A DNA stretch of 63,532 bases, counting the filler, from Folioceros fuciformis (lineage: Eukaryota): NCBI GenBank assembly GCA_049999805.1. It is 6 parts of 5 records of this genome, joined end to end, with 100 filler letters (N's around TTAATTAATTAA, not from the genome) between each part and the next. Parts side by side here need not be neighbours in the genome. Positions count along the whole stretch, not along the records: positions 57,794 to 63,532 come from JBNGIO010006453.1; 5 more parts are not named here. The stretch is one strand, 5' to 3'. The position numbers were made by a program, and so were the translations under genes. Below, one piece after another: positions 19,470 to 63,532 of the stretch. Every line of letters starts with the position of its first letter. Position 1 is the first letter of the stretch. The notes under the pieces are model-generated. The model saw only the letters and a program-made list of their open reading frames with translations, was not told the DNA's origin and did no database searches.

Positions 19470-22286
19470 TTACGATTCCTCCTTCCTTCTCTTCACATTC
19501 AAGGTTTGCCCAGATTGTGCTAACCGTTTTCCAAGTTTACCTCTCACTGTTAACTTGTGAGGCAGTCCCTCATCAATTGGCCCCTCGTCATCAGGCTTGA
19601 CAACCGAGACGGCCGTCTTTCTGCGCTTGCGAATCCTGCCTGTTGCTCTGACATCACCCGTAGTTCCCTGCTCGACTCGAGCACGCTCTTCGTTTTCCCC
19701 TTCGTTTTCCTTCGTACCCAACCCCATTTCTACATGAACATTCTTGAGCAAGTCCTCCCAAGTGATGTTCTCATCATCTGCAATTCCACCACCTGCTGCA
19801 TCTGTAACACCCCTTTTCGTTTCACCGTCCGCCTCTCGTACCTCAGAGGTTTCTACTTNNNNNNNNNNNNNNNNNNNNNNNNNNNNNNNNNNNNNNNNNN
19901 NNTTAATTAATTAANNNNNNNNNNNNNNNNNNNNNNNNNNNNNNNNNNNNNNNNNNNNTTCCCCACGGGGAGGAGGGATGAAGAAAGGGATCCTGCCCCT
20001 TTGCCAGTCGAAAAGCACCATCTTGGCTGCTGTGTTGAGATCTGGTTCTCCCCCCTGCATGGACAAAATGTCTCTGGCTGAGAGTCTTCAAAGGGAACCT
20101 CCTCCCCCTCTCAGATGCAAGACCCGAGAACTATTGCAATATTCCACAGAAACATACCCTCAACAGCTTCCCACATTGGCGACACAGCTGAGTAAGAAAA
20201 TCTTCATCGTCCTCCCTGGCAAAGTGCAGACCAATTGAGATTGCCGCTCTACAGCAGCAGCATGGCAAGCAGTTGTGGCAAGAAGTGCAGAAAAATACCA
20301 CTCCTTTATCTTGTATGCGCGTATGAGATACTCTTTCTTCACTCGGCGTAAAACTTCACCAATATGTCCTGTTGCATCCTCCAGATTTCCCACTCGTACC
20401 TGCAACAAAAAATTTATGTTGATCTTCAAGTTGTATGCTCTACCAACGGACTGAGAAAGCAGTTCACAAAAAGTTGTGACCACATACCACCCCTTTGAGA
20501 ACAACATCAGTTTCACTGTCATGACTCCTATAAACCACACCAGGGCAGTCAATGAGGAATATGCGCTTCGTCAGGGTGATATACTGCCAAACTTTTGTCT
20601 CTCCCGGTATTGGTGCCACCTTACATACCTGCAAGAACCAACCATGCTGGAGCATGAGGCTACAAGTAATGCGTACGATGTAACAGAAATGCACCCTTGC
20701 ATATCCCAATTATTTAGTACACTCCAAGCCTCTCGTCCTCCCTTCACTTGATGCACCCACTTTTTTGGTTCGAAGCGTGTTGATAACGGATGACTTGCCA
20801 ACATTGGGGTAGCCAACAAAACCAACTGAGATAGCTTGCTTGTCACTCTTAAGGCGGGCATACTGTCTTAAAAGACCAAGAAGTGAACCCTGCATCAAAC
20901 AGCAAGCAGCCAGAATCAAGTACTGAATCTATCCTACACACCAATGAGCAAGGCAGAAAGCCGAAATCAAGAGAATATTACCTTCCCAAATGGATTGGTT
21001 ACACTGGCATGGAAAGCCAAGGTGGGAAACTCCCTGGATAGCGTATGTAGCCACCCTTTTGTGGCCCAAGATGGCACCAAATCACACTGCAAAACAAAAT
21101 TAATATATTGAGACGTAGCTTGCACACTGTGATAACCAGGGAGATCATGACCTACTGAGTGAGCAATGGCACAACATACCTTGTTCAGCAAGAAAATCAG
21201 GTGCTTTTGCTTGCAATTGTCTCGGATGTGCTTTTCCAGATGGGGGCAGCGAGTGCCCTGTGGATCCCGTGCATCAAGTACCTGTTCCAAAAGCAAAAAA
21301 GGTCAGTGCATACGATTCGGAATTTCTGCGACCATTCATACATCCAAATGACTGAGACCCAACAATATATAGCTCTCACCTGAACCACCACGTCCGAGGA
21401 ATCAATCACCTTGTACAGCTCCCCCCAGATACGCTTGCTCTGCCCCTTATCAAACATGCTGTGTCTGGCTGCAACACGTGCACCGTCTTCGAGCATCGGT
21501 CCTTCCCCAGAGCTTTTAACCTCAAAAGTGTCTGCCAATATCCCGCAGTCAACGAGAAAGCCGCGATCCAGGACCTCTCAGTCAGCTCATGCGGAACATC
21601 ACACCACACTGGAGCGACTAAACTCACTAACCTTGCACACCAGCAGCTCTTTCTACTAAACTAGAATAGTCTTCTGCAGGTAGCATTGGTCGTCTACGTT
21701 TCCTCTTTGGCCCAAAAGCAGCATCAAACGGTACAAGATCTAAAACACCCCCCTTCCTTCCAGGTGGCTGGAGCATACAACAAAGAATTCAGAACAATCC
21801 AGAAACCATTGTCTACCACGGAAACAAACTGACACGAAACATGATTCAACCTTTTTGTTGTCATTTAGCAGGGCAAGCGGTAGCCTCTTCTCTTTCAACA
21901 CCACAGCATAAGGATTTGCCACCGTAGTCCGCATCTCCTCTCTGAACCTGTCCAGCTCTTTCTGCCCCACAACCCTTGTGTTTCCTGCAGGCCATCCAGC
22001 CATCCTTGAGCAGGCTGCCAGGCAAAAAAATCCAATCCATCCAAATCGAAAGCCTACCAAACCAGCGTCTGTCAGGCTGAATCCTGGTGGACGGCAGAGA
22101 TTGCGACTGCAGTTCGTGGTGCTTAATGCGCCCTTTGCTGTCCCGCACAGGCCGCTTCTTGTACATGTTGAGCCGGCGCACAGTTGCCGAGCTCCTGGTC
22201 CCGCTCTTGCCATCTCTGCGCTGCTCATCGAGGGAGTGCTTCGGCTTCCCTTTCACCGCTGGAGACTTGGTTTTCTGCTTCCCCAT
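19470..22286 (-). CDS. NUG2: Nucleolar GTP-binding protein 2 (NOG2/GNL2/NUG2), multi-exon, interrupted by an assembly gap
   Basis: NGP1NT motifs ([23 protein letters not shown]), [19 protein letters not shown]1 [10 protein letters not shown]3 LIDCPG. An acidic C-terminal part ([11 protein letters not shown]) lies left of the gap at 19859-19958; that assignment is inferred. Confidence 0.93.
19859..19958. other. Assembly gap with artificial TTAATTAATTAA linker (also 41125-41224, 44250-44349, 47042-47141, 57694-57793; plain 100-N gap at 43326-43425)
   Basis: Identical N44-TTAATTAATTAA-N44 structure, which places stops in all six frames. Confidence 0.98.
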
Positions 22287-38767: not shown

Positions 38768-41124
38768 CTAGCAGTAGAACATCTTGTGTCGAATTTTCGG
38801 GGCTGGATTAGGAACTTCAGTGTCTCCTGGTCCGATGTAACACCGGGCTCTGAAGGCCAGGTGATGGGCATAATATGCCGGTGGCACAATCGACACAGAT
38901 CGGGTGCATCTGGCATACGTCGAACACAGATAGTTAGTCAGGGTCTGCAGAGAGTCGGCAGAGAATCTGTTGTCATCGTAGAGCACATGGTAATGGGTGG
39001 GCCGGCTGGTTCCCTTCAATCCTGCATGACTGCACAGATAGAAATCGAACTCTGTAGGATGACACACGCCGGAGTCCACAACAGTCCCCGCCTTGATATT
39101 CCCCTTCCTGTCGCGATACATCTCGTCTCTGCTGAAAGGGAAGAAGCGCGTGTGGTGCCTCTTCTGGACAACGACGAAGGTGACCAACGGGTTGTAGTCT
39201 GCTTCAAGACTGTGGCAAGCCCTTTGAATGGCCGTCAGCTCATTGCTCAACACAATTTGAAACTGGCCTTCACTCACACCATCCCGGTAGAAAAGAATCC
39301 GTCCCGGCTTCATCTTGGATTGGCTGTAGAAGGACATTAAGAGCGTCCTGACCATACCCTCAAGCTTCAAAATCTGCTCCACGCGGCTCTTCTGGGAACT
39401 GATCAGGCCAGCATAGGTAGACACATACGGCCAATCCTGAGAGGCAACTACTGCAGCGATGGATATTCCATCATCTCCTGGGCTAGGATGAGTAACATCG
39501 GCACCGAAGATGATCGTTGGCGTTGCGCCTAAAGTTGGAAGCTTGCTTGACACGGCTTCGACCAGCACATTGTTTCTTCCTCCCATCTTCACATTGATCT
39601 TCATGGCAACGTTGGCCATATACTGGTCCTTCCCCATTCTTACATGCTTGGCACTGCAGCACTGCGACATCACGCCAATGTTTGTCTCGCAGATCCTCTT
39701 CAATTCGGCATACCAGTCATACCTGATGTCAGGCAGCGCCACAAGGAGCAAGTCCACATCCTTGTTTTTCATAAAATCTGTAAACTTATTCGCATTCGGA
39801 GGCAAATTAGCAATGGGGAACACGGGACTGGTGTTGAAGTGCATTCCCAGATCGGTGCACTTTCGGACGAGGGCTTGGAAAAACCGGAAGGTATCGTCGT
39901 TGGAGAGGTGCGAGAAGTTGACGGCAGCCCACCTGTCAACTCTACCCCCCGAATGGAACTGAACCTTGCCCATCATATTCCAAGCACCGTTTACAGGCTG
40001 AACAGAGTGACCTGTGCCGTACAACAACGTGGGAGGTGGCAAAAGCCTCGCATCCACAGTCACAATCTTGTCACTGACCTGCATCCCGAACTCTCTAGCG
40101 TAAGAATCTTTCATATACTGGTTGAGGTTAACAATGTTCAAAATATCCCGCTCTCTGTCAGCAGGACTTTGAGAGGTCATCTCAAGTAGACCACTCCTGG
40201 CTCTCTCCCCAAGCATTCTCCCCGGGTATCGCTGCCCAGGCAAAATCCTACACAGTTCCATAGGCAGATAATTTGGTCTCGACGCCGACCCCACATCCAA
40301 GCACGGCAGCCTAGTCCACCTCAGCTCCTTATCATACTTGTTCTTGAAATATTGCACCACGCTTATCTGCTGTCCACCTGAATCTGCAAAAGTAAGCTCA
40401 CCAGTCGTGACGTCGGTGAGCTTGAATACCCGGTGCTTCCTTCTCATCTCGCCCCGATGAGTCACCTCCACCTTCACTCCCCGGAGTGTTCTCCCAATTT
40501 CTCTGCATTGCGCTTCAGTGAGGGCTCTCTTCTCGTCCAAGGTCCTGTCGCGCTCCCTCAGGAAATCAATGACATGCATCTCTCCCAGCAGAGCAGTTGC
40601 TGAAACATTCACATTCAACGACAAGCCCATCTGCACAGGGCGGACACTTTGGAAAAAACCTCTCCACCCCACCAGCCCATCACCCAGATTAACGACCCCC
40701 CCAAGGTTTGGCGAGTAAAAGGACCTCCCAATGGGACTGTAATTTAGAGTAGGCCGCTCCCGCAAAACAATGTCCAGCTCCTGAATCAACTCTTGCGGCA
40801 AGTCGGAGGTCTTCCCCTCACGAAACAGACGCCATTGCGCCACATCCACGGTCCTCGCGAACTTGATGGTGATGTTATACTTTCTCTCCTTTCTCGGCTT
40901 CACATCATTTGCAGTCTCCTCCCTCTCCCTCCCCCTCTCCTCGTCGGGGGAGACAACAAACGTCTTGCAATCAAACGGCAATTTCCCAGCCGAGTACAGA
41001 CTACTCCTCCCATCATACACAGGCATCCTTCCCCCAAATTCCCCGCCATACAATCTGAGCATCAGGGCGATCAGCAGCCGGTTGAGAGACCGAGACACAA
41101 CCTCCGGCGTTATAAGCACATGGT
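38768..41124 (-). CDS. AGO: Argonaute (AGO1/5/10-like), intronless, 5'-truncated by an assembly gap
   Basis: Uninterrupted ~785-codon ORF with N (ITPEVVSR, VYDGRSSLYSAG), L1, PAZ (NYLPMELC), MID (ELKRICET..SQCC, KINVKMGGRN) and PIWI (GADVTHP, RDGVSEGQF, GTSRPTHYHVL, AYYAHHLAFRAR, MFYC*). Confidence 0.97.
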
Positions 41125-41859
41125 NNNNNNNNNNNNNNNNNNNNNNNNNNNNNNNNNNNNNNNNNNNNTTAATTAATTAANNNNNNNNNNNNNNNNNNNN
41201 NNNNNNNNNNNNNNNNNNNNNNNNCTCGTATTCTGTCATCCACAGGTCCTACCGCATGGGCTCAACAGATGTGAAGCCAAGACTGGCTAATTCAGCAGTC
41301 TCCCTCAGCAATCGGCTGGGATGCGTGTGCGAAGCCGACACCGGCTTCATCCGGACTCGGGTTGCGGATGGTCAGCCCGATGTCGTGTCCATTGTCCTCT
41401 TCCGCCAGCGAGCGTTCATCGCCGTGGAGAGAGCGCTCATTTGTGCGAACCTTCCAAACGGTCTTCCGTCATAGTCCAAGATCCGTGGAGGCGCTATCTA
41501 CTCATGCGGTCTGGATTCGGTACACGGGATTCTAGAGCGAGCTTCTGTGGATGCATCCACACTAGGCAAGCATACTTATGTTATCTTCCTGAGCGGCGGT
41601 GCACATTGCGGTCTGACGGATCCGGTGGCCATGGTAAAGACGATGAAAGACGGCGACAAATATCTCGTCTTCCACACGATACGCTTCCGTTCAGAAATCA
41701 GAAAAAAAGGATGAGGAGACATTGCAGAGGATGGCAGCCGCCGGTGCTGGGAAGTGTGAGGTCTGCATCAACGGAGAGCAGCTGGCAAGGAGCTTTGAAG
41801 GTTTAGCCAAGAGTCTGAGGTAGACTCGAGCAGTGAGCGGGCCTTCAAGAGCTAGGTGC

Positions 41860-43425: not shown

Positions 43426-44249
43426 GCCTTTTTCTTCATAGCCAGGATGTTGTTGCATATAAATTTCAGTATCAAGTTTGCCATTCAAGAATGCTGTCTT
43501 GACATCAAACATCTGTAATTCATAATCCTTATATGCTGATATTGCACACATGTCTCGCAGGGTTGGGAGTTTCACCACAGGAGCATAAGTCTCCAGGTAG
43601 TCTACACCTGGCACTTGTGAAAAGCCTCGTACTACAAGACGAGCTTTGTATTTGTCAAATGTACCATATGCTTTAACTTTGAGTTTGAACACCCATTTGC
43701 ATGTAACCATTTTTCTGCGAGGGGGTAACTTTGCCAATTCCCATGTGCCATTTTCAATGAGTGAATCATATTCTGACTGTATGGCTTTCTCCCACTCCTT
43801 GTGATCAGGTCTGCGTAGAGCCTCAGGATATGATTGTGGCTCAATAGGATCAAGATCAATAGCAGCATAAGCCTGAACATAATCAGAAGAAGGACGAAAG
43901 TCAGGTGCACTGTAAAAATCAGGAGGTCGCCGTTCACGGGTAGGATAGTGGCGAACAGGTGCAGAGTCTTGCATAGGTATTGATTCAATATCATCTGCAG
44001 CAATGGGTTCAGAGTCTGGCAAATCAGGCTCATCAAATGGAGGATCGGGGGGATCAGGTAAGATGTCTCCATGAGGATGGAGGTCCTGCAAAACAGATTG
44101 ATCAGAGTCTAACAATGATGCATCTGCTTCTGACTCTGGAACAGTAACTGATGTGTCCCCCCTTGCAGGAGATACATCCGAATCATTAGTGCCATGATCT
44201 GTAAGGTCAAAATAAGAAATCTCAAGAGTGTCTTCAGCATCATCAGAGT
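43426..44249 (-). mobile_element. Ty1/copia pol fragment (integrase-RT linker and RT start) between two gaps
   Basis: EPQSYPEAL..WEKAIQSEYDSLIENGTWEL..CKWVFKLK..KARLVVRGFSQ..FDVKTAFLNG. Closely similar to the element at 58402-62431. Confidence 0.93.
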
Positions 44250-44349
44250 NNNNNNNNNNNNNNNNNNNNNNNNNNNNNNNNNNNNNNNNNNNNTTAATTA
44301 ATTAANNNNNNNNNNNNNNNNNNNNNNNNNNNNNNNNNNNNNNNNNNNN

Positions 44350-47041: not shown

Positions 47042-49165
47042 NNNNNNNNNNNNNNNNNNNNNNNNNNNNNNNNNNNNNNNNNNNNTTAATTAATTAANNN
47101 NNNNNNNNNNNNNNNNNNNNNNNNNNNNNNNNNNNNNNNNNCCACCCGACATCAGCAAGGAGGTTGCTGCAATGCTGGAGGAAGAGCTGACTAGGCTGAT
47201 GCACCGGTCTAAGAAGGTCACGTTTGCAGACCCTCTTGTGACAGGGGTGGTGGAGAGTGCAAGTCCCTTGGAGAAGGAACAGGAAGGAGAGAAGGTTGAT
47301 CGAAGCGAGGAGGATGGAGGGATCAATCCTCCTAAGACAACAACAGCAAGGGAGGCTTTGGCCATGAAGGTTGCTGGATTTGCTGACGCCTTGCTTGACC
47401 AGGAGTTTGTGGTGAGCTTGAGACAGCTCTTGTCTGTTAGTCCCAAGGCCAGGAAGATCGTCAAGGAAGCCATCCGAGGGATACCGGAGCCACTCGAAGG
47501 GAAGACAATCCCGACTTGGATGAGTTCAGTGGAGTTGGCTGATTGTGGAGCTCCTGAAATAGAGGTGGAGATTGCAGGTTGTCTAGTACCGGATGTACCG
47601 TTGGATACGGGGTCTGGTGTCAATCTCATGACGGAGGACACAGCCCATCGTTTGGGGTTCACGGAGTTTGACCCTATCCGCGTGTACCTTCGGATGGCAG
47701 ATCAGACCAAGAGGAAGCCTCTAGGAGTGTTGAAGGATGTGCCCACGGTGATAGGAGGGATCATGTTCAAGCTAACCTACATTGTCATGAGGCCAGTGTC
47801 TGACCTAGGGTACAAGGTGCTCCTTGGGAGACCATGGTTGTACGGGACAGCTTGTGTGTTTGATTTTGGCAGGAAAGGTGTGACCTTTAGGTCTAAACCT
47901 ACAGGACCTGCTGAAGTTTCGTTTGTCTCGTGGAGCAAAGCTCCCTATGGGGGAGAAACAGCAGGACCATCCCCCGGGTACACATCCGGTAGTGCTGGAG
48001 GTAGCACTTCCAGCAGTACAGGAGCCTACAAGGGAGTAGGGCATACTGTCAGGATGGTGGATTTGGGTCAAGAGGTGAATTGTTTCCATACTGAAGTGGT
48101 GGAGAATGAAGATCCACAGGAGGATGAAGAGCAAAGGGAAGGAGCTGCCTTTTGGAAGGGGAAAGCCTATGACTATGATTTCCCAGAAGAAGGATCAGGA
48201 ACAAGTGTAGGGAGTAGTCCCGAAGGAGTTTACGTGGATCCTGATGCTGTCGAGGACATGGAGTTGACCCCAGGGAAGAAGGTCAAGGTGTCCAAGTACC
48301 TCACACCCAAGGAGAAGGTAGGTTTGAAGGCACTGTTGATTGAATATCTGGATGTGTTTGCCTTCAAGGTGACGGACATGACAGGTGTTCCGGAGGAGCT
48401 GGGTGTTCATAGGATAGATCTCAAGGAGGGAAGCACACCGGTTCGAGTGAAGCAATACCGATTGAACCCAAAGTACTCCATGGTTGTGAAGGAGCAGTTG
48501 GATCAGTACTTGGAGGCTGGAGTCATCTATCCTGTCCTAACTAGTGAGTGGGTAGCTCCAATTGTGGTGGTGCCTAAGAAGCAAGCTGGCAAGGTGAGGG
48601 TTTGCCAGGACTTCAGGAAGCTCAATGAGGCGACCAAGAAAGACCATCATCCACTCCCTTTCATGGACAGTGTGCTGGACACAGTTGCTGGACATGAGAT
48701 GTACAGTTTCCTAGATGGGTATTCAGGTTACAATCAGATCACACTGCGGGAGGAGGATCGCGACAAGACGACTTTCACAACTAATTGGGGGACCTACCCC
48801 TACGCCAAGTTGCCTTTTGGGCTCTGCAATGCTCCGGCAACTTTTCAGCGGGTGGTGAATACCATTTTCAAGGAGTTCCTTCGGAAGTTCATGGAGGTGT
48901 TTTTGGATGACTTTTGTGTCTTTGGAAGGAGGTACCTACACTTGGAACAGCTGAGGAAGTGCTTGCAGAGGTGTAGGGAGACTAACCTCAAGTTGCATTC
49001 GGGGAAGTGTTTCTTTTGCATGACGGAGGGTATCTTGCTAGCCCATAGAGTTTCAGCCAGGGGGTTGCAAGTCGACATGGAAAAGGTGAAGATCATCTCG
49101 GAGATGGATGCACCTCAGAGCGTGAGACATGTTAGAGCCTTCATTGGGTTGGTGGGTTACTACAG

Positions 49166-49456
49166 TGTTGAGTTATCGAGCTCTATATGAGCTAAACTCA
49201 TGTGGTGTTAGTTATCCCAGTTGGGTTCATACTAGACTAGTTCTAGTTATTAGTGAACTTAGGATAGTGTAGATTATCCCATATTGAACCTGGAAGTTGT
49301 GTAGCCCTAAATGTACTACTTAAATGGAGACCTCGGACCTCCATAGTAAGACAGTGGTGATGTGTATTGTTTTTGGTTGTGACCACCAATACCACCCTCT
49401 CTTCTCTCCTCTCCTCTCCTACACTTGCACATAGACTGGAGTCGATCCTATTGACA
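49166..49456 (+). repeat. 5' LTR (291 bp, TG...CA) of the nested copia
   Basis: TGTTGAG...TTGACA directly followed by the PBS. Confidence 0.9.
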
Positions 49457-49468
49457 TGGTATCAGAGC
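49457..49468 (+). promoter_or_regulatory. Primer-binding site complementary to initiator tRNA-Met
   Basis: TGGTATCAGAGC immediately after the LTR's terminal CA. Confidence 0.93.
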
Positions 49469-52400
49469 CCGGTGCAGGCGGTGCAAGATCGGCGTAGGAG
49501 GTGCTGCAAGAGGCAGCAAGAGTGCACACCAGAAGCTAGAGCAGCTACGAGAAGTTGGAGCAGCTTGGAGGGAGATCGGCAGCACGCGTCCCGGCAGCTA
49601 ACTCTCATATCGGTGTGTGCAGGAAGTGAGGAGAAGGGCGACAAGGCCCTGTCAGCTTACTGGACTAGCTGTTGATCCCCAGAGCTCTGTGGAAGGGCTG
49701 ACAAGTGGAGGCAACAGCTGCAATAGCCTCAGCAGCTGCAAGAAAGTGTGCTAACCCTAGCTTGGCAGCAGGGAAGGAATTGACAGGAAATCTCACGGGA
49801 GCTTTGTGGGCAGACAGTCAAGAGTCTGTAAGGACACGGAGCATGAGACAATCTGGTTCACACAAGGCAGCGTGATTCCGCACCAGATTGCTCTTAGGAA
49901 GAAGAGACTTAAGGTCTTGTGAGTAAAACTCCAGTCAGAAGCAGTCTGGTTCTTTCAGACATTTATCAGGTGTGAGTACTCAAGAAAGGATTGAGTGTCA
50001 ACCTTGAGTGGTGGCAAGAATGGCCAGTGACAGTATTAACCAGATCGTACAGGAGAAGCTGGACAAAAACAACTTCCATGCCTGGAAGTTTCGTTTTACA
50101 AACTTTCTTATGGGAAAGGGTTATTGGGACTACATTGAGGGGGAGCATGAAAAACCCCCCGTAGTACTTGAACGGAATGCAACAGCGGAACAGATTAAGG
50201 CGCTGAAGGATTGGAGTCAAGGATCTTGGAAGGTCATGTATTGGCTGTCAATCAGCATTCATGACACCATGATTGGGCACATACAGGATGCAGAGTCGCC
50301 CAAAGAAGCATGGGATGAGTTGGTAAACTCTATGAGACTAACACAAAGGCGAGAAAACTGCAGTTGAAGAATGACTTCAACACAGTTATGAAGAAGAACT
50401 TATCAATCAATGAGTACGCGTTAAAGATCAAAGGGATAGTGGAATCCCTTGCGTCCATTGGTGTCAGTGTGGAAGATGATGACAAGGTCGAAGTTTGCTT
50501 GCGCGGGTTAACACCTGCCTACAAGCAGTTCAAGACTTCCATACAGACTCGGGAAAACATTCCCAATTTCTCAAACCTGATTTCTATGTTGATCATAGAG
50601 GAGAAAAACCTAGGCGAGGAATCATCCTCTAAGCCTAAGGAAAACTCTGAGCAGGCCTTCTACTCTGGCAGAGGCAGAGGTAGAGCCCAAGGTGGCAGAG
50701 GGCAAAGAGGTGGTAGAGGTCGGAATCCCTACCAAAATCAACAACAGAATCAGGAGTCCCAGTACAAGAGTACACGTGGAAGAGGAGAAAATTCTCGAGG
50801 CTGGGGGAGTCAAAGAGGACGTGGAAATCAACAACAAAATGATGCAAATGCAGACAATAGTGGTTGCTGGACTTGTGGTAGGTTAGACCACTTCGAAAGA
50901 GACTGTCCAAGGAGAAATCAAGGCAACAGGAGGCAGCAGAACAATTATGCCTCTAGCAGCAGTCAGAATGACTCAAAAAACTTGTTTGTCATGCAGCATA
51001 TGCTTAACTCTGTATCTGCTAATGGATCCAACAATGGTGAGATTGTGTGGTATGTGGACTCAGGAGCTTCGAACCACATGACATGCCATGGGGAGTGGTT
51101 CAAAGAAATGCAAGTGCTTGACAAACCTGGATATGTAGAAACTGGAGATGACACAACACATGCAATTGTGCATACAGGAACTGTACCTCTGAAGATGCAG
51201 GATGGCAAAATGAAGTGCCTGGTAGATGTTCTTCACGTACCCAACATCACAAAGAACTTGGTGTCAGTTGGGCAGATGGTTGAGCAAGGACTGCAGGTTA
51301 GATTTACACCTGCAGGACTCTTTGTTGAAGAGTGCAAGAAAGGCGGTCGCCTGATTGCTCAAGGACAGAAGGTTGGACGGATGTTCACCTTGAACGTGGA
51401 GGTTCCTAAGCTGAAGTCAGCCATGTTTGCAAAGGGTACAAGGGTAGTGACAGACCTAGAGATGTGGCACAAACGCATTGGACATGTAAATGTGCAGAAG
51501 TTGAAGTCCATGCAGCATCAGAAGGTTGTCACAGGCATACCCAAGCTTACAGAAAATGGACTGCAAGGTATATGTGAAGCATGTCAACTTGGGAAACAGC
51601 CTAGGAATGTGTTCCCCCATGACAAACATGTCAGCAGATATGTGTTGGATGTTGTGCATTCAGATGTATGGGGTCCTACACAGACTGCATCAATCGGAGG
51701 CTGCAAGTACTATGTGACCTTCATTGACGACCACACAAGGAAGGTGTGGGTCTATTTCATGAAAGAAAAAAGTGAAGTGATCACTCATTTTCATACTTTC
51801 AAGGCGATAGTTGAGAAGCAGACAGGTAGGCACATCAAATGCCTAAGATCTGATGGAGGGGGAGAGTACTTCTCCAGAGAGTTCAGCAAATTCTTATCAG
51901 AACAGGGCATTCAACGGCAGTACTCATGTCGTTATACGCCACAACAAAATGGAGTTGCAGAGCGCAAGAACAGGCACATAGCAGAAGTGGCGAGAGCATT
52001 GATGACAGAGAAGAAGATGCCTCACTACTATTGGGCTGAAGCTGTAAGCACAGCATTGTACATCATGAACAGAACTCCCACAGCAGCGGTGCACAGTGTA
52101 ACACCGGAGGAGAAGTTCACAGGGAAGAAACCTGACTTGTCACACTTAAAGGTATTTGGTTGCATTGCTTATGTCCATATTCCGGATGAGTTGCGGACTA
52201 AGCTTGATCCAAAAGCAGAAAAGTGTGTCTTCATTGGGTATTCTGTTACACAGAAAGGATACAGGTGCTACAATCCCAGTACACGGACTATGAGAGTAAG
52301 CAGAGACGTAGTCTTTGATTAAATGGGTAGCTGGTACTTTGAAGTACAAGGAAGTAGTGTAGCTGATGTGCTTGAAACTGAGGTAACAAGCAATGCAGGT

Positions 52401-55400
52401 CAACAATCACAAGTGTTGAGTGGACCGCAAGCGTCATCAAACTCGACAAATGTTCAGAATCCATGGAGTGGCAGGTTGCGAGGTAGTGTGAGTCCTACGA
52501 GCTCCACAGCTGTGTCTCGCAAAGGGAAGGAAAAAGTCCAGGATTCAAAGATACCAGACCTAAGTGCAGGTGCGGTTGATTCAAGCGACTCTGAGCAGAG
52601 CTTGGATGAGGAATTCGGTGTACCGAAAATCGAAACACCTGGTGCAAAAGAGGTTCAATCAGCCCCTGAAAGTGGTTCAATCCCACGGAGATCTGGAAGG
52701 CAGAAGGTTCCAATACAGCAGTTGACCTATGATAGCTATGTAGCTAGGCACCATGCCTATATGGCAAAGGTTGTACAGGATGTGGAACCAAGAAGCTTTG
52801 AAGAAGCTATTGGAGACACAAAGTGGGAACATGCTATGGATGAAGAAATGAATGCGTTAAATCAGAATGCAACATGGGACCTAGTACAACTACCTGAAGG
52901 CAAGAAACCAATAGGTTGCAAATGGGTGTACAAGGTCAAACACAACGCAGATGGTAGTATCAACAGGTACAAGGCAAGGCTTGTGGCCAAGGGATATGCC
53001 CAGACATATGGAATAGATTTTGAGGAGACGTTCAGTCCAGTTGCCAAAATGGCAACAATTCGAACCGTGATCGCACTAGCGGCATCGAAAGGTTGGGTCC
53101 TACATCATATGGATGTGAAGAATGCGTTTTTACATGGAGAATTGCTGGAAGAAGTATACATGGACCAGCCACCAGGTTATGAGGATTTGGATCATCCAAA
53201 TCATGTGTGCAAGCTGAAAAAAACGTTGTACGGACTGAAGCAAGCCCCGAGGGCTTGGCATGAGCGTCTTGCTCAACATCTGATTCACATCGGATTCAAC
53301 ATGGCAGATGCGGATCATTCGTTGTATGTGTGCAATAGTACAAAACGACTGGTCTTTGTGACCATTTATGTGGATGATCTAATCATTGGAGGTAATCAGT
53401 TGGATCAAGTGGAGCAGATCAAGGAACTTCTACAACAAGAGTTCAAGATGGCGGACCTAGGTGAACTGAGGTTCTTTTTGGGCATTGAAATTATACGAAC
53501 CAACACAGGCATTTGGCTGTCACAGCGGAAGTATGCATCGGATGTACTAACTAAGTATGGTATGGTTGAGTGCAAGCCAATCTCGATTCCTTTGGATCAA
53601 AATCTAAAGCTCAGTGCTCATGATGGTGAAGCACTTGAAGATCCAACAATGTACAGGAAGATTGTGGGTAGCTTGATATATCTCACTCTATCCCGACCAG
53701 ATTTGAACTATACAGTGGGATTGCAAAGTCAGTTTATGCAGGCGCCAAGAAAGCCACATTTGGATGCAGTAAGGCGAACGTTGCGCTATGTGAAGGCAAC
53801 TATGGATCATGCTCTCTTTTATGTTGCAGATTTAGAAATAAACCTGTGTGGATACACAGATGCAGATTGGGCAGGCAGTGTTACTGATCGTAGATCTACA
53901 AGTGGATTCATTTTTTTCACTTGGGAGTGCAGCAATTACATGGAGTAGCAAGAAGCAGCCTACAGTGGCTTTGTCTAGTACAGAAGCTGAATACAGAGGC
54001 GCAGCAATGGCAGCGCGTGAAGTGACTTGGATTTGTAAGTTACTTGGAGATTTTGGATTGCAGGTCAACGACAAGGTTGTTATCTACTGTGACAATCTTA
54101 GCAGCATACAGTTGGCGCGAAACCCAGTGTTTCATGCCAGGACAAAACACATTGAAATACATTATCATTTTCTTCGCGAAAGGATTTTATCTGGAGCTAT
54201 TGATCTTATGTATGTCCATACAGACGAGCAGATAGCCGATATATTTACTAAGCCAATGGGAGCAGAGAAGCTGAAGAAATTCCGAGCTATGTTAGGCGTA
54301 CAGATGCTATGTTGAGCTCGAGGGGATTCATCAAGGACTTCGCTAAGAAGGCGACAGCTTTGACCCAGCTAACGAAGAAGGATGTGCTGTATGAGTGGAC
54401 CCCGGAGAGGGAGGAAGCGTTTCAAGACTTGAAGAGGAGTTTGGTGGCAGCACCCACATTGAGCCCACCAAATTGGGAGAAGACCTTTCATGTGTATGTG
54501 GATGTGTCAGCCTATGCTATAGGGGCCATCCTCAGCCAACAAGACGACAAGAAGAGGGATCACCCTATCTTCTATGCCGGAAGGCAACTCACGGATGCGG
54601 AGAGGAATTACTCCACAACGGAGAGAGAAGCTTTGGGCATCATCTACGCTTGTAAGAAGTTCCGTCACTACCTTCTAGCTTGCAAGGTAGTATTTCATGT
54701 GGACCACTTTGCTTTGAAGTATCTTGTGAACAAGCCTGACCTATCGGGGAGGATCGCTAGGTGGATTCTCTTGCTGCAGGAGTTTGATTTTGAGGTGGAA
54801 ACAAGAGCGAGGAGGAGCCATGTTAATGCTGACTTTGTTTCTAGACTCAAAACCAAAGGGAAGGTTAGAGAAACGGATGACAGGTTTCCTGATGAGGAGT
54901 TGATTGCTGTAGTACATACAGTAGAAGAGGGAGAGTTCGATGAATAGGTTATCGGTGAGGGAGGAGGAACCTCTACAAGGGTTGAGAGTAGCCAGAAGGT
55001 CAGACAAGCTCGAAGGAAGAGGAACCGCCGTAGCGACAGGTTGGGAAGGCCTTGTGCTAGGCAGTTGCTACCAGTTGAGGTGAGGAGATTTTTGGAGTTT
55101 GGAATCATGCCAGCTGGATTGAGCCGCGAGGGTAGGGCAGTGTTCTTGCACAAGACAGGCCCATATTGTTTGAAGCAAGGGGTCTTGTACAAACTAGGCC
55201 CAGATGGTAAGGTGAGGCGTTGTTTGGAAGTGAATGAAGGTGTTGTGGTGACCGAAGCTTTGCATGCGGAAGAGGAAGGAGGCCACTATTCAGTCCCCAT
55301 TACCATCAAGAAGATCTTGGATACTGGGTTTTGGTGGGCTACCATGCAGAGGGATGTGTGGGAGTTTGTGAGAAGGTGTGATGCTTGTCAAAGGGTAGGG

Positions 55401-56370
55401 AGACCCACATTGACAACTAGGTGGCCATTGACCTACATTTTGCCGTTGGCTCCGTTCGAGAAGTGGGGGATTGACTTTGTAGGGCCGATTCGTCCACCTA
55501 CTCGCTGGACAAGGAAGCAATATATCTTAGTGGCGACGGACTACTGTACCAAGATGGTGGAGGCGGAGGCTACCCGACGGGATGATGCCCCAATAGTGGC
55601 CAAATTTCTATTTGAGAACATCATCACACGCTATGGGTGTCCGTTGGAGTTGGTCAGCGACAGAGGTACACATTTCCTCAATGAAGTCATCACCGCCTTG
55701 ACCACCTACTTCAACATTCATCATAGGAAGACCACTCCTTACAATCCGAAGGCGAATGGGTTAACGGAGAAGACCAATGGTCTTTTGGGGACCATCTTGA
55801 CCAAGGTGACTGTGACTCACATGTACGATTGGGATACCAAGTTGCATTCAGCACTTTGGGCTTACAGGACGGCAGAGAAGATCACCACGAAGAGGACTCC
55901 ATACTACTTGACCTATGGTATGTCGCCTGTTCTTCCCATTGAGTTTGAGATTCCCACTCATCGTGTCATGGAGGAGGCTAGGCTACCGGTGAGGGAGAGC
56001 CAAGAAGCTAGGTTGGAAGCTTTCATCACCTACGAGGAGGACTGAGAAGAAGCCTTGGAGGAGACACATAGGATACAAGAGCAAAGGAAAACCCGCCACG
56101 ATGGTAGGTTGAGGAAGAAGGAGACCATCGTATAGGGCGATCTGGTGCTACTGTATGACAGTAGATACATGGATTTCCCAGGTAAGCTGAGGTTGAGGTG
56201 GATGGGTCCTTACAAGGTGGAGGAAGTGTTTGAGAATGGGTCTGTCCAGTTGAGGGTATTGGATGATGATTTGTTGCCAACTAGGGTCAATGGTTGGCAA
56301 GTCAAGAAGTACTATCAGCCCTGAGAGGGTTAGTTGTTTGTGAGGACGCAAACAGCTGAGAAGGGAGGCA

Positions 56371-57693: not shown

Positions 57694-57794
57694 NNNNNNN
57701 NNNNNNNNNNNNNNNNNNNNNNNNNNNNNNNNNNNNNTTAATTAATTAANNNNNNNNNNNNNNNNNNNNNNNNNNNNNNNNNNNNNNNNNNNNT

Positions 57795-58392
57795 GAGTTC
57801 GAGTATGAAGGGTCTGACCAGCGTCCTCCTGTGCCTCCTAGGTTTCCTGTTCCCAGCGATGTGATGTCCGAGACCAAGGTGATCACCCCTGGAACATGGG
57901 AGGTGCCAGGCAGTCCGCTGTGGTACAAATGTCATTCTACGGGCCTGATCATGAAGCGTGTCGAGGTTCAGATGTGCCGTGAATTCAAAGGGCACATGGT
58001 CAGCCTGTACAGTGAGTGTTACGTCCATCTTGTTGAAGTTCCATAACTTCTCTATCCCTCTTGCTGCTTGTAGCTTGTGACATAACTGTTTCCTAACCCC
58101 CTGCTGATCAGCATCACTCGTCTTTAATTCATACTCCCACTGTCTCCTTTCAGGGTCTGAAGAGAGACTTGAGGAGGAGAACTGTTTGGAGGATAAGGAT
58201 AGAATTTCCTACAAGGAGAGGAAAAAGAGGAACTCCCCTCGTACAACAGATGAAATCTTCTCCTCTGAGTCTATTGGATATGCATCCTGGGAGAAGATTG
58301 GTGATTCTACCACCTCTGAAAGTAGGGGTTCCTTCAAATCTCCTCCTGAAGATTCAGACGATGATGACAGCAATGATTGGGGTCGCATCTAG
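57795..58392 (+). CDS. Two-exon ORF of unknown function, antisense to and abutting copia pol (5' end in gap)
   Basis: Open frame from the gap edge to 58011. Intron 58012-58153 has GTGAGT, a CCTAAC branch-like site and TCTCCTTTCAG. It splices in frame to exon 2, which ends TAG at 58390-58392. Product has a KERKKR basic patch and an acidic tail. Confidence 0.55.
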
Positions 58393-58401
58393 CTTGATAG
58401 G

Positions 58402-61400
58402 CTAGGCTTTAGATGTGGCAGTGGGATTGCCTTCATGGCTTCCCATGCCAAGTACTTTCATGTGCCTTTCGTGAAGTTCCCTGCCAAGGGACTTAGTTAA
58501 TATGTCTGCTGGATTTTCAGCTGTGGGCACGTACTCCAGGCTAATCTGTCCAGATTTGATGAGATCACGTATGAAGTGATACTCAACCTCCACGTGCTTT
58601 GTCCTGGAATGAAAGACTGGATTGTGAGCTAAACTCATCGATCCTTGATTATCTGTCTTTATTGTGGTGCAGGCTGGAAGTGGGATTCCAAGTTCCTTAA
58701 ACATCAACTTGCACCAAGCGATCTCTTTCGCAGCAGCTGTAAGTACACGATATTCAGCCTCTGTGCTTGATAAAGCCACAGTGGGCTGTTTCTTACTAGA
58801 CCAACAGATTGGTCCTCCAGCTAACATGACTACATAACCTGAGACTGACTTCCTCGTGTCTATGTCTCCGGCATAATCAGAATCTGTGAAGACATCAAGA
58901 TGTAAGGGTACTCCAGGTATGTTTCTGTAATTTATACCAATACTGTGAGTTCCCTTTAAGTATCTGAAAACTCTTTTAACACCTGTCCAGTGTGTTTGTC
59001 CTGGGTTTTCCAGATACTGTGATAAGACACTAGTAGCATAGGCTACTTCCGGCCTAGTTGTGTTTGCTGCATATATGAGTTTCCCAACTGCTTGTCTGTA
59101 AGGGACTAAACTCATTTTGCCCTTTTCTAATTGTATATCAGGACACATGGACTTACTCATTTTCAGTCTACAAGGTAAAGGGGTTGCAGAAGGTTTAGCA
59201 TCCTTCAATCCAAGTTGCTCAGCACTATTGAGAAGGTAACGTGGCTGCGTAAGTGAGATTGTTCTCTTCTTTCTGTCACGTTGAATAAGAATACCAAGGC
59301 AGCTCTGTAAGGCTCCTAGATGTGTCATCTCAAACTTGGTTGACAACATTTTATTAATGTCTTTGATGAAGGTGGGACTGTTACAAGCCAATATAAGGTC
59401 ATCAACATATACTGCCAGGTAACACACTACTTCATTTGCCCTGTACACATATAAGCTTCCATCTGAAACACATCTAACAAAACTCAAAGCTCGCAGCTCT
59501 TCGTCCAGGACAGCATTCCATTCAAGAGCTGATTGTTTCAGTCCATACAGGGTTTTAATTAAGCGTAAGACATGGTCTTCTTTCCCTTTAACCTCGTATC
59601 CTAGTGGCTGTTGCATATAAATCTCAGTATCCAGCTTTCCATGTAAGAAAGCTGTCTTTACATTAAACATATCCAGCTCATAGTCATTGTGTGCTGCCAA
59701 TGCACAGATGGTGCGAAAAGTGGCCAGCTTAACAACAGGAGCATATGTTTCAAGGTAATCGAGGCCTGGTACTTGAGAAAAGCCTCTGGCAACAAGCCTG
59801 GCTTTATAACGATCAAAGGTACCATCAGCCTTAACCTTTAATTTGAACACCCATTTGCAAGATACTGGCTTGCGTCCAGGAGGTAGTCTTGCTAATTCCC
59901 ATGTTCCATTTTTGATGAGGGAATCGTATTCAGATTGAATGGCCTTCTTCCATTCAGCAGCATCAGGACGTCTCAAAGCTTCTTCATAAGATTGAGGCTC
60001 CATAGGATCAAGGTCAACTGCATGTGCAGAAGGTTTCCTAAAGTCTTGTGATTCATAAAAGTCTGGTGCACGTCTGTCCCGTGTAGAATAACGGCGTACA
60101 GGGAGAGGAGGTGGCTCGTCAATAGGAGCGGGAACATCCTCAAGGTTACTATCAACAAGAACAGCAGGATCAGGATCAGCAACAACATGAGGAGGTTGGT
60201 CCTGAAGATCAGATTCAGCATCTGCAACTGGTTGCTGGTTGTCCTCATTATCACTTTGCTGGTGGTCTTCCCCCCCTGCAGGAGCAAACTCCTCATGAGG
60301 GTGATCAGGGAAAACCGTGATTTGAGGAAGAGCAGCTAGATCAAAATCGTCTGAAGAGGTGGGAGGAGCTCCCACCAGCTGCCAAACTTGTTGTTCATCA
60401 AAAGTAACACTGCGAGCATAAACTACAGTGTTCTCAGGTACATCATATAACTTGTATGCTTTAATACCTTCAGTGTAGCCTATCATAAGGTATTTCTTGG
60501 CTTTAGCAGCTAACTTAGCACGTTTCTTCTTAGGTATGAAGGCATAAGCTATGCATCCAAAGGTTCTAAGGTGTAAGATAGCTGGTTTTCTACCGAAGAA
60601 GGCTTCATAGGGAGTTTGTCCAGCAAGTGCATTAGTGGGCAGCCTGTTATGCAGGTACACTGCTGTCATAAGGGCTTCAGCCCAATAGGAAAGAGGCAGA
60701 GAAGCTTGATGAAGCATAGAAGAAGTCATTTCCTGCAAAACAACATTCAAATGCTCTGCCACACCATTTTGCTGTGGTGTATATACAACTGTAAGTTGCC
60801 TTCCTATTCCCTCGGCAGTACAAAAAGATTGAAATTCACCAGAAGTGAATTCACCTCCATTGTCTGATCTGAGGGTTTTTAACTGCTTGCCAGTCCAGCG
60901 CTCTGTGTACTTCATGTAATCTTTGAATAGAGAAAAGCATTCACTTTTAGCTTTGAGAATATAAGCCATGACAAACCTTGTCTTGTCATCTGTGAATGTC
61001 AGGAAGTACTTGCCGCCACCAATTGAAGGCTGTGTGTGAGAGAGGTCCACAGATATCTGTGTGAACCAGCTCAAGAACCTTTGAAGCCCTGTAGGGAGCC
61101 TTATTCTTGAAAACTGCCTGGTGACGTTTGGATAAGACGCAGGCTTCACATAGAGGTAGGGTCGGCAGTGTGCCAATTTTGGCATCAGCATACAAGTCAC
61201 TGGTTGCAAGTTTCTGTAACTTAGCACTATGTGGGTGACCTAGCCACAGCTTAGCTTTATCTTCTGACTTACTAGAAGACTCTGTAGACTTAGCAGCTAA
61301 GTGTGTTTTTGCCGTATGGCTGTCTGTTTGCAGACGAAAGAGGTCATGTGAAGATGACCCATAAGCTAGGATCTTACGATGGTCAAAGGCATCAATGATC

Positions 61401-62431
61401 CTACACTCTGTAGGAGTAAACAAGATGTGAGTATGATTATCCATGTTAAGTTTCCTAACAGAGATGAGATTCCTAGTCATTTCTGGAACATAGTACACAT
61501 CTTTCAGTATGAGTGTTATTCCTGAAGGGACTGGAATCTCTACAGTGCCTCGTCCTGGAGACACAAGTGATCTGTCATCACCTAAGTAGACAAACTGATT
61601 GTCTACGAGCTTGTAAGTGACAAAAGCATTTTTGTCAAAACATATGTGCGCTGTGGCACCTGTGTCAAGGTACCACTCACTTACTGGTTTACCTTGTGTG
61701 TTTGCAGATAAGCAGGTGGGGTTAACAAGAGGATATGCAAACTTCCTAATCCCTACTGTAAGGGCAGAAGTTGAGCCTTGCTTTTTCACCACTACGTTTG
61801 TCTCTGAAGTGGAGTTGCCCTCCTTGCGAGGTACTCCGGCCTGTTTCTTTCGACATTCGTTTTCCCAATGTCCTGGAATCTGGCACCAGTGGCATTTTCC
61901 AGATTTATTGGGTTTCTTCTGTGCTGTCCCTCGCCGTGAGGAACTAGCACCTTGAAAGGTATTTGGTTTACCTTTAAAGTTGGGTCTTGCACCCTTGTTT
62001 TTATTTGTGGTGTAAAGAGCCTGCTGCTTACCAGCACGCACTCATTCTACAATTTTGTATGTTGCGAAGGGCTGTCATTTGACTTGTGGTATTGACGCCT
62101 GCGTACAGTTCGTGCAATCTGGTCCAAATCTCAAGAGATGTATTACAGCCAGAAGTTTGTCGCAGCATATCAGAGGTTAGTCCACTCCTCAACAAGTGTT
62201 GTGCAGCTTCATCCTTCGCATACCAAGCTTCCTGTAATTTCTTTTCAGAAGCAGAGGGAGTGGCCTCATCAGAGGCATCAAGTACAGGACGTGTCTCGTC
62301 TCCTGTTACTATTCGCCACAACCTCTTGCTTTGTAAGGCTCCTTTCATACGCATGACCCAGATGTCATAATCAGTTCCCCCGAATCTTTCTCAGTAAAAA
62401 TAACACCACCAGCTCCAGTGGTGTCAGCCAT
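58402..62431 (-). mobile_element. Ty1/copia gag-pol, decayed
   Basis: gag ATG at 62431 (frameshift ~62390, then FGGTDYDIWVMRMKGAL); internal gag deletion ~62040; zinc knuckle CHWCQIPGHWENEC; WYLDTGAT; integrase with frameshift ~61040; RT (FNVKTAF, VYVDDL); RNase H TDSDYA..RTKHVEV. Confidence 0.96.
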
Positions 62432-62585
62432 TTGTTAGAATGTGGTAATTCTATCCTGACTGTTAGGAAGAATGGCTATGTAAAGACTTGTAACCTATCC
62501 AGACAAGGTACAAATTGAAGAGAAAGACAAGGGAAGGGTAAGATGCTACTGTTGCATCTTAGATAGACTGCAAGAGCAGTCCTGT

Positions 62586-63293
62586 CTACAAAGGATGAGC
62601 AAACCTACCAACTTGAGGTAAATTGGCTTGTTGATTTGCTAATCTATTTTCTATCCTTTGATGTCTAATCTCGAACCTGTTAAATGCATAAACAGAGCAT
62701 GAAGGACAGGAATTTGGGGCATCAAAAGTATGTTGCTTATATTTCTTGTCAGCACGTTTGCAGGCAACACCTCTGTGTGCTGGATTTGTTAGCAAAACGG
62801 GCTTGAGCAAGGTAAGCAACTTGAAGTCCAAATGTCCTATTCGTTCCTTCAATTATTGCAAGTCAACATTGACTTCAGCTATCTTGTGACGAATGCTCTG
62901 GAAACGCTCATCAACATGCTGTTGATGTGTTTCTATTCTTGCATTTAATTGTGATACACTAACATGTTGTGATGTGTGTGTTGTCAGGAAACCCCTAGGG
63001 TTACCGTTTACAGCAAGTGGAAGATTGTCTTGGTTTCTGGGTGGTGGAGCAAGCAGCAGATGACGCTGATGTGGGAAGATTGCTTCAATCAGATTATTGA
63101 AGGAATCCCTCACAATCTGTGAGTGTTCAGGCTGGTCTTGTGTTTGAAGAATCCAATCCAGGGTTTGATGGTAAAGTGATTCTGCGAACATCAGCCTGCC
63201 CTCTTGGATTTGTTGTCCTCTGTGAGCATTCCTCTGTTGGATGCGCTCAGCAGGGCGTTGTCGCCATCGCTGCCCGTCCACCAGGTTGGCCAT
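62586..63293 (-). CDS. Extra ~235-codon ORF upstream of copia gag, split by one in-frame TAA; coiled coil + Cys/His motif
   Basis: ORFs 62853-63293 and 62586-62852 are in the same frame (CAA TAA TTG). Heptads LNARIETHQQHVDERFQSIRHKIAEVNVDLQ*LKERIGHL; C-x9-H-x7-C-x2-C motif. Confidence 0.55.
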
Positions 63294-63532
63294 TCATGTG
63301 GCCAGCCTTTTTGTATTTTGTTATTTTTCAAGAAACATGTGTAGCTTTGTAAATAATTCTATAATAAAATATTTGCCAATTCTGGCAGTTGTTGTAGCGT
63401 GCCTAGTGCCAGATTGCAGAAGTGCAATCTGACAATGGATGCACTAGAACAGCCTCCTAGAAATGCAAATCTTTTGAAATATAAATCAAAAAAAGCTATA
63501 AACTCATTTCTTGAAATTTGTTTTAAAGGTTT

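Follow-up and report, generated by a model that had tools for sequence, protein, structure and literature searches.

A defective copia element of Folioceros fuciformis with a repeated open reading frame upstream of gag and an antisense two-exon reading frame after pol

Open reading frames (ORFs) outside gag-pol, upstream or downstream of it and in sense or antisense orientation, are recognized in plant long terminal repeat (LTR) retrotransposons, mostly of the gypsy group (PMC7264820, PMC11963269, PMC11728184; here and below, statements on cited papers refer to the parts of them consulted). In the Ty3/gypsy elements Retand, Grande and RIRE2, the region between POL and the 3' LTR measures 2.9-6.6 kb and carries an antisense ORF in most copies, often with a TRP28 domain (PMC7264820, PMC11963269). 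For copia, Neumann et al. 2019 (REXdb) recorded ORFs of at least 250 codons in 582 elements and sorted them into 5' and 3', forward and reverse categories; in the consulted parts of that survey, the eORF-3'F of SIRE is the only extra ORF named as the trait of a copia lineage (PMC6317226). Outside SIRE, copia is described in the literature consulted as structurally uniform. The gypsy element Ogre has a sense ORF, ORF1, upstream of gag that encodes an orphan protein. Here we describe a Ty1/copia element at positions 57794-63532 of a 63,532-nucleotide (nt) stretch of DNA from Folioceros fuciformis (assembly GCA_049999805.1), hereafter the window, in which gag-pol lies between a sense ORF and an antisense two-exon ORF.

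An earlier note on this DNA had proposed that these ORFs form an undescribed copia lineage with three genes, and had named no copia family that combines a 5' ORF with an antisense intron-containing one. Extra ORFs as such are not unusual enough in copia to be unheard of, given the 582 elements in REXdb (PMC6317226). Among the papers listed by full-text searches, no title or abstract describes a spliced antisense ORF in copia, or the two kinds of ORF together, which is not proof of absence. The proposal of a new lineage survives in part: the 5' ORF is repeated, copia-like and open in most copies, and a sister copy is colinear with the contig, but the antisense region is found in about two copies, its first exon is host-like and the copia copy is defective. 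The reading that we prefer, at a probability of roughly 0.4, is that a short unplaced contig carries a defective low-copy copia whose 5' ORF belongs to a repeated unit, with an antisense piece that was either captured by the element or is adjacent to it.

The contig at 57794-63532 is gap-free, as had been stated, and is a separate piece, the last one of a concatenated set. The listing of N runs places a linker (N44 + TTAATTAATTAA + N44) on its left, at 57694-57793, and its right end is the end of the window. Five linkers of this composition (19859-19958, 41125-41224, 44250-44349, 47042-47141 and 57694-57793) and one 100-N gap occur in the window. Since its pieces are linker-joined contigs, the window neighbours of 57794-63532 are not its genomic neighbours. 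Contigs of the public runs X1, X2, X4 and X5 were compared with this contig; the figures given below are those among the pieces listed, with 1138 pieces and 933 differences lying beyond them. Four host ORFs of the window, with a GC content at third codon positions (GC3) of 0.62-0.75, served as the reference for host composition.

The copia gag-pol and the reading frame upstream of it

Pfam analysis shows that the minus strand of 58402-62431 carries, in this order, the domains Retrotran_gag_2, Pol_BBD, gag_pre-integrs, rve, SH3_retrovirus and RVT_2, which is the order of Ty1/copia elements (Pseudoviridae; GAG - protease - integrase - reverse transcriptase (RT) - RNase H). The gag-pol that had been claimed is therefore copia by its domains, but it is not one frame: Pfam, tblastn and translation together describe a defective gag-pol whose reading frame is disrupted in at least three places. 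The frame opened by the gag ATG (62431-62429) ends after 28 codons in translation, and gag homology to two distant copia polyproteins (P0004/P0010, tblastn) picks up in a different frame at ~62390. Further on, tblastn places the absence of ~70 gag residues, with a frame shift, between 62100 and 62032, and a further frame change at ~61026. At the other end, copia polyprotein homology runs out at ~58444, 13 codons before the pol stop (58404-58402), and the alignment with two copia polyproteins, 1363 and 1412 residues long, stops 4 residues short of their C-termini. Run contigs show small indels relative to the window copy near two of the frame breaks, so that part of the damage is peculiar to the window copy or to this assembly.

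The closest of 2343 database matches to gag-pol has 43% identity, so that the family has no close relative in protein collections and its lineage is poorly sampled. GC3 of gag-pol is 0.37-0.41. We take the copia at 57794-63532 to be an old and defective member of a low-copy Ty1/copia family. Part of a related copia is found at 43426-43959 (minus strand), with 75% protein identity to residues 376-548 of pol and 73% DNA identity over 409 nt. It adjoins the 100-N gap, beyond which nothing of the same element was detected.

Upstream of gag and on the same strand, an ORF runs for 146 codons from an ATG at 63293 to an in-frame stop at 62855-62853 (part 1, 62853-63293) and continues in the same frame for 88 codons to a TAG at 62588-62586 (part 2, 62586-62852); read without the internal stop, the frame has 235 codons. 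The sense ORF that had been reported before gag is thus present, though split in two, and the spacer that separates it from the gag ATG is 154 nt long (62432-62585) rather than 155. This spacer has stops in all frames and contains no site resembling a primer-binding site (PBS). Shuffling of the 5' region produced stop-free runs of at least 146 codons in 23 of 1000 cases, so that length alone says little, but the 235-codon frame is longer than the largest stop-free run in 1000 shuffles (200 codons). GC3 is 0.41 in the first part and 0.34 in the second, which matches the copia and is unlike the host ORFs, and the codon-usage score is positive only in the ORF's own frame and only under the transposable element (TE) model, trained on the window copia ORFs.

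Run contigs show that the internal stop is the exception. At its position another letter is present in 8 contigs of X1 (depth 159/176) and in 4 contigs of X2 (depth 137/137), which indicates that the upstream ORF is open in most copies, and the sequenced sample perhaps has it open at this locus too. When depth is summed across the 5' region, X1 gives 81-259 and X2 gives 87-188, with near-identical contigs in X1 at 39-44. Over the ORF it amounts to two to six times that of the near-identical contigs, and the core occurs in 4-8 contig variants, most of them without the stop. A diverged contig (depth 39.3 in X1 and 56.9 in X2) shows a joint at 62391-62488 as well as indels at 62530/62536, and hence extends from gag into the spacer.

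The same strand, the copia-like composition, the repetition and the mostly open frame argue that the upstream ORF is part of the copia unit, and we put the chance that it is integral to the element at about even. In that case it would be carried between an unseen 5' LTR with its PBS and gag, may be translated as the first cistron of the element's own transcript, and its product, which has a basic N-terminus, could be a helper protein that binds nucleic acid or oligomerises. The copy number of the ORF core differs from that of the adjacent spacer and the gag start, which favours another explanation of the contig, namely that an LTR-less gag-pol fragment lies amid unrelated DNA, preceded by another low-copy repeat and followed by a low-copy gene, and that a second copy arose by segmental or whole-genome duplication. 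That explanation has to accept that the upstream ORF shares the strand and the unusual composition of the copia.

Database searches did not place the upstream ORF. Pfam returned no family, only coiled-coil-like matches far under the cut-off. In the homology searches, the 146-residue product gave 8 candidates, none of which scored, and the 235-residue read-through, with X at the stop, gave 124 candidates, again with none scored; a metagenome scan yielded 103 pattern matches, none confirmed. An Atlas search with both extra ORFs gave no usable match, and no paralogue of either was found in the window or among 120 copia proteins.

Two further observations concern the spacer. Intron-like signals are present on the element's sense strand (62608-62460, minus): a G|GTAGGT donor lies 7 codons before the stop of the upstream ORF, and a pyrimidine tract with a CAG acceptor, ~149 nt from that donor, lies 28 nt before the gag ATG. 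The frame joined across these signals fails to match gag in this damaged copy. The possibility that the upstream ORF is an extension of gag was ruled out in this copy by the stops in all three sense frames of the spacer.

The antisense reading frame and its sense-strand rival

Downstream of pol, the plus strand carries an ORF whose stop (58390-58392) lies 9 nt (58393-58401) from the pol stop (58402-58404), exactly as had been reported. Its first exon (57795-58011; 72 codons plus 1 nt) runs into a GTGAGT donor at 58012. The intron of 142 nt (58012-58153) closes with a pyrimidine tract and a CAG acceptor (TTTCAG), and the second exon (58154-58392; GC 0.45) adds 78 codons and the stop. The donor, the acceptor and the compatible phases of the proposed two-exon structure hold, and an alternative in-phase acceptor ends at 58111, but the ORF is incomplete, since exon 1 is open to the contig edge, and comprises at least 151 codons. 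The intron region has stops in all three plus frames. Plus-strand codon-usage scores are positive in exons 1 and 2 and negative in the intron. A comparable splice arrangement was obtained in 2 of 2000 dinucleotide shuffles of 57794-58401, by criteria chosen post hoc.

Exon 1 is host-like in composition (GC 0.55, GC3 0.64, against 0.37-0.41 in the copia), whereas exon 2, with a GC3 of 0.46, is not; exon 2 encodes an acidic, serine-rich tail. When exon 1 was searched against 1.84 billion representatives, the sole match (E 6e-4) was a bacterial-looking repeat protein, which we judged spurious, and Pfam at E up to 10 returned no family for either exon. We consider it most likely that the plus-strand ORF is a real or once-real piece of a spliced gene, captured by this copia sub-lineage or lying beside it; the two-exon piece would then be a gene fragment picked up by, or next to, the element.

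The sense strand after pol is itself nearly open (57795-58388, minus). From an ATG at 58388 it offers 198 codons with a single stop at 58211-58209 (59 + 138 codons), the second part being open to the contig edge. This frame could be the coding one, in the env-like position known from SIRE, with the antisense ORF as its shadow, but we regard this as very improbable. The longest stop-free run of the 3' region is indeed on the sense strand (138 codons, reached or exceeded in 32 of 1000 shuffles). The frame crosses the supposed intron with a positive codon-usage score, and in the sister copy described below two small deletions within it total 3 nt; moreover, other lesions are private to the window copy, and the single stop could be likewise. 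Its score is negative, however, over both exon regions, where the antisense frames score positively, and positive only over the intron region; over two thirds of the frame's length the score is negative. A replacement of 128 by 88 letters in the sister copy breaks the sense frame too, the rarity of a consensus donor and acceptor in compatible phase among the shuffles speaks for the antisense frame, and Pfam returned no family for the sense frame.

Copies, boundaries and the readings of the contig

A run contig of 1357 nt with 1 letter different covers 57794-58445 and runs 705 nt further to the left, which shows that the junction between pol and the antisense ORF is real in the reads and that no high-copy boundary lies within those 705 nt. 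A second contig, of 1057 nt, ~84-85% alike and of similar depth, is colinear over 57794-57928, 58057-58242 and 58390-58445; in this sister copy 57929-58056 is swapped for 88 letters, and likeness falls below 80% over 58243-58389. The left-hand contigs both stop at 58445, and the two right-hand ones, one identical and one 85% alike, start at 58427. This gives the picture of two copies that share a short identical word and are indistinguishable there. The four run contigs meeting at the end of pol all carry the word itself, 58427-58445, and copia polyprotein homology stops at the same place.

Summed depth in X1 drops from 206 at 58370-58561 to 63-82 on the antisense side (57794-58369); the least conserved internal bins have 98-116, and RT reaches 571. 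This corresponds to about two copies of the antisense region at 80% likeness or more and to about 13 copies of the conserved pol parts. The whole contig is thus present in about two copies, and the conserved pol domains and the core of the upstream ORF in more. Because of this drop in depth and the GC3 of 0.64 in exon 1, the antisense ORF is probably not a family-wide third gene. A 206-nt piece with zero differences in X5, a run of another study, places the copy in an independent sample. X4, a run presumed to be RNA, gave only pieces less than 90% alike, on conserved pol parts.

No boundary of the element was found inside the contig. There is no direct repeat, and hence no LTR pair, within 57794-63532. 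The sense strand of 63532-62432 contains no initiator methionine tRNA (iMet) PBS at up to 3 mismatches and no half-tRNA-Met motif at up to 2 mismatches. The full-tRNA motif was validated by an exact match at another copia of the window, where TGGTATCAGAGC stands beside the LTR end and shows the iMet PBS type of this genome. After pol, purine runs of 8-11 nt occur, none of which abuts a TG start, so that neither the PBS nor the polypurine tract (PPT) of a Ty1/copia element is seen within the contig. The earlier note was right on both counts, that is, on the absence of a PBS or LTR between the 5' ORF and gag, at the mismatch limits used, and of a canonical PPT with TG after pol.

Two candidates for LTRs were rejected. 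The first paired a TGTTG at 58247, behind the purine run 58265-58255, with a GCAACA at ~62549; no PBS follows, and the purine run stands off the TG. The second takes both flanks as one long LTR. Two elements would then give ~4 copies per flank, and the left flank has 1.5-1.9.

These data bear on the proposal that the contig represents a complex copia lineage with three genes (a sense ORF before gag, gag-pol itself, and after pol an antisense gene with an intron) between LTRs beyond the contig ends. That gag-pol is kept from ATG to stop, with unrelated-looking coding sequence 154 nt upstream and 9 nt downstream, would be rare as the outcome of two random truncations, and no PBS, LTR or clean PPT intervenes in 1.1 kb upstream or 0.6 kb downstream. 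The 705 nt by which the run contig continues leftward without a break and the ~85%-alike sister copy with the same pol/antisense junction also fit such a lineage. An intron in antisense orientation would outlast retrotransposition, not being spliced from the sense RNA. Against this stand the mere two or so copies of the antisense region at 80% likeness or more, the host-like GC3 of exon 1, an antisense frame that is not clearly kept in the sister copy, and the fact that no LTR is seen; a second copia of the window also has its pol stop against foreign sequence without a 3' LTR, and there no accessory gene is involved. Overall we consider the three-gene lineage quite unlikely, and no less so in the version in which the 5' ORF encodes a basic coiled-coil-type protein and the intron of the antisense gene survives retrotransposition.

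The same observations can be read in favour of the gag-pol fragment amid unrelated DNA introduced above. The contig occurs over its full length, with its flanks, in about two copies of similar depth, exon 1 has a host-like composition, the copia copy is old and defective, and the second window copia is likewise without a 3' LTR. This explanation requires, however, one breakpoint no more than ~40 nt from where pol ends and another in the leader, with gag-pol left complete. The lack of any relative of exon 1 among the 1.84 billion representatives would be odd for a conserved host gene. The copia itself reaches 43% at best, so that this lineage is poorly sampled. We regard the fragment as a possible explanation that falls well short of probable.

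Our preferred reading is that of a defective copia with its 5' ORF in a repeated unit and an antisense piece captured or adjacent. In favour of an extended element are the gag-pol kept from ATG to stop, the traits described for the upstream ORF, and the junctions shared by one sister copy. That the antisense gene lies inside the LTRs of these copies appears rather doubtful to us, and that the upstream ORF and the antisense gene both belong to the element is less credible still.

Several points weigh against this reading. The depth taken for one copy comes from near-identical contigs, with no known single-copy gene as calibrator. LTR, PBS and a convincing PPT are missing from view on both sides, so that the boundaries of the element are not fixed, and the pair of colinear copies is explained as well by a segmental or whole-genome duplication that took the flanking DNA with it as by transposition of a composite element. 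The upstream ORF core could owe its higher copy number to being part of a different repeat, and the adjacency of its extra copies to gag is not visible among the pieces listed. Neither extra ORF has a relative or a family in the databases searched. The predicted protein of the upstream ORF is all-helical with a confident long helix at residues ~113-145, but this single-sequence model is poor overall (predicted local distance difference test, pLDDT, 58.1; predicted template modelling score, pTM, 0.30). On the antisense side, the replacement and the low likeness in the sister copy mean that the frame is not clearly conserved there. A word of caution on such junctions in general comes from the second window copia, which shows that in this assembly pol can lie against foreign coding sequence, with neither a 3' LTR nor an accessory gene involved.

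This second copia (49162-54320, within 47172-56045) has an LTR end and the exact PBS motif at 49457, and its gag-pol extends to ~54315. It lies within a gypsy pol that is split at 'GYY|RGFIKDF'. Its pol stop leads straight into the resumed gypsy, and only ~7-13 nt there resemble its LTR start (TGTTGAG); a 3' LTR and a clean target-site duplication are not visible. Deletion, recombination or a join made in assembly could each account for this end.

Elsewhere in the window, long ORFs that lack introns encode a cytochrome P450, an Argonaute, a WD40 protein and a Sel1/TPR protein. The P450 ORF (13028-14566, plus; 512 codons, GC3 0.67) served as a host codon-usage reference. The Argonaute ORF (38768-41119, minus; 783 codons) lies at the extreme end of its contig and covers ArgoN through Piwi. 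Among solved structures, Arabidopsis AGO10 is its best relative (788 bits; human AGO2, 592 bits), and this plant-type AGO1/10 ORF could be a retrocopy. Together with the exact TGGTATCAGAGC beside the LTR end of the second copia, these ORFs place the host in the plant lineage.

Comparison with described elements

Like the copia elements with extra ORFs in REXdb, the Folioceros element combines a copia polyprotein with ORFs outside gag-pol, and the categories eORF-5'F and eORF-3'R fit the positions of the two (PMC6317226). For the first of these categories the contig offers a candidate, a sense ORF 154 nt before gag, with no intervening PBS, that is repeated and lacks the stop in 8 contigs of X1 and 4 of X2. 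Unlike the members of that set, the ORFs described here fall under the cut-off of 250 codons, with 235 codons upstream and at least 151 downstream. With SIRE and the sireviruses, in which a sense env-like ORF follows pol, the element shares coding potential directly after pol. It differs from them in that the better-supported downstream frame is antisense and spliced, the sense frame having a stop and poor codon usage, and no sequence relation to them was found.

The position of the antisense ORF after pol, and its want of a cellular homologue, recall the aORF-3R of Retand, Grande and RIRE2 (PMC7264820, PMC11963269). Here, however, the polyprotein is copia, neither TRP28 (PF04195) nor any other Pfam domain was detected, the ORF is present in about two copies and the LTRs are out of view. 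The upstream ORF resembles the 5' additional ORFs (aORFs) of Tekay chromoviruses in being a sense ORF before gag whose orphan product has a few helices and long regions of low confidence (PMC11728184). The Tekay ORFs belong to gypsy elements and are conserved in hundreds of copies (PMC11728184), whereas 4-8 contig variants, with no LTR context, are seen here, and the 5' ORF gave no similarity to anything in the databases searched. Gene transduction as in maize Bs1 (cited in PMC7264820) offers a further parallel, since the host-like gene fragment is confined to one or a few copies; most transduced fragments have the sense orientation (PMC7264820), and the one described here is antisense and has kept its intron.

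As the evidence stands, the element is one defective copy on a contig of 5.7 kb, its boundaries out of view, and serves as a starting point for a genome-wide survey rather than as a finding. A copia family in which a 5' ORF is conserved, perhaps together with an antisense gene that is spliced, would enlarge the small set of retrotransposon accessory genes, with possible functions in packaging, regulation or anti-silencing. Such an element, if real, would join the known retrotransposons with extra ORFs as a variant among them rather than as a new kind.

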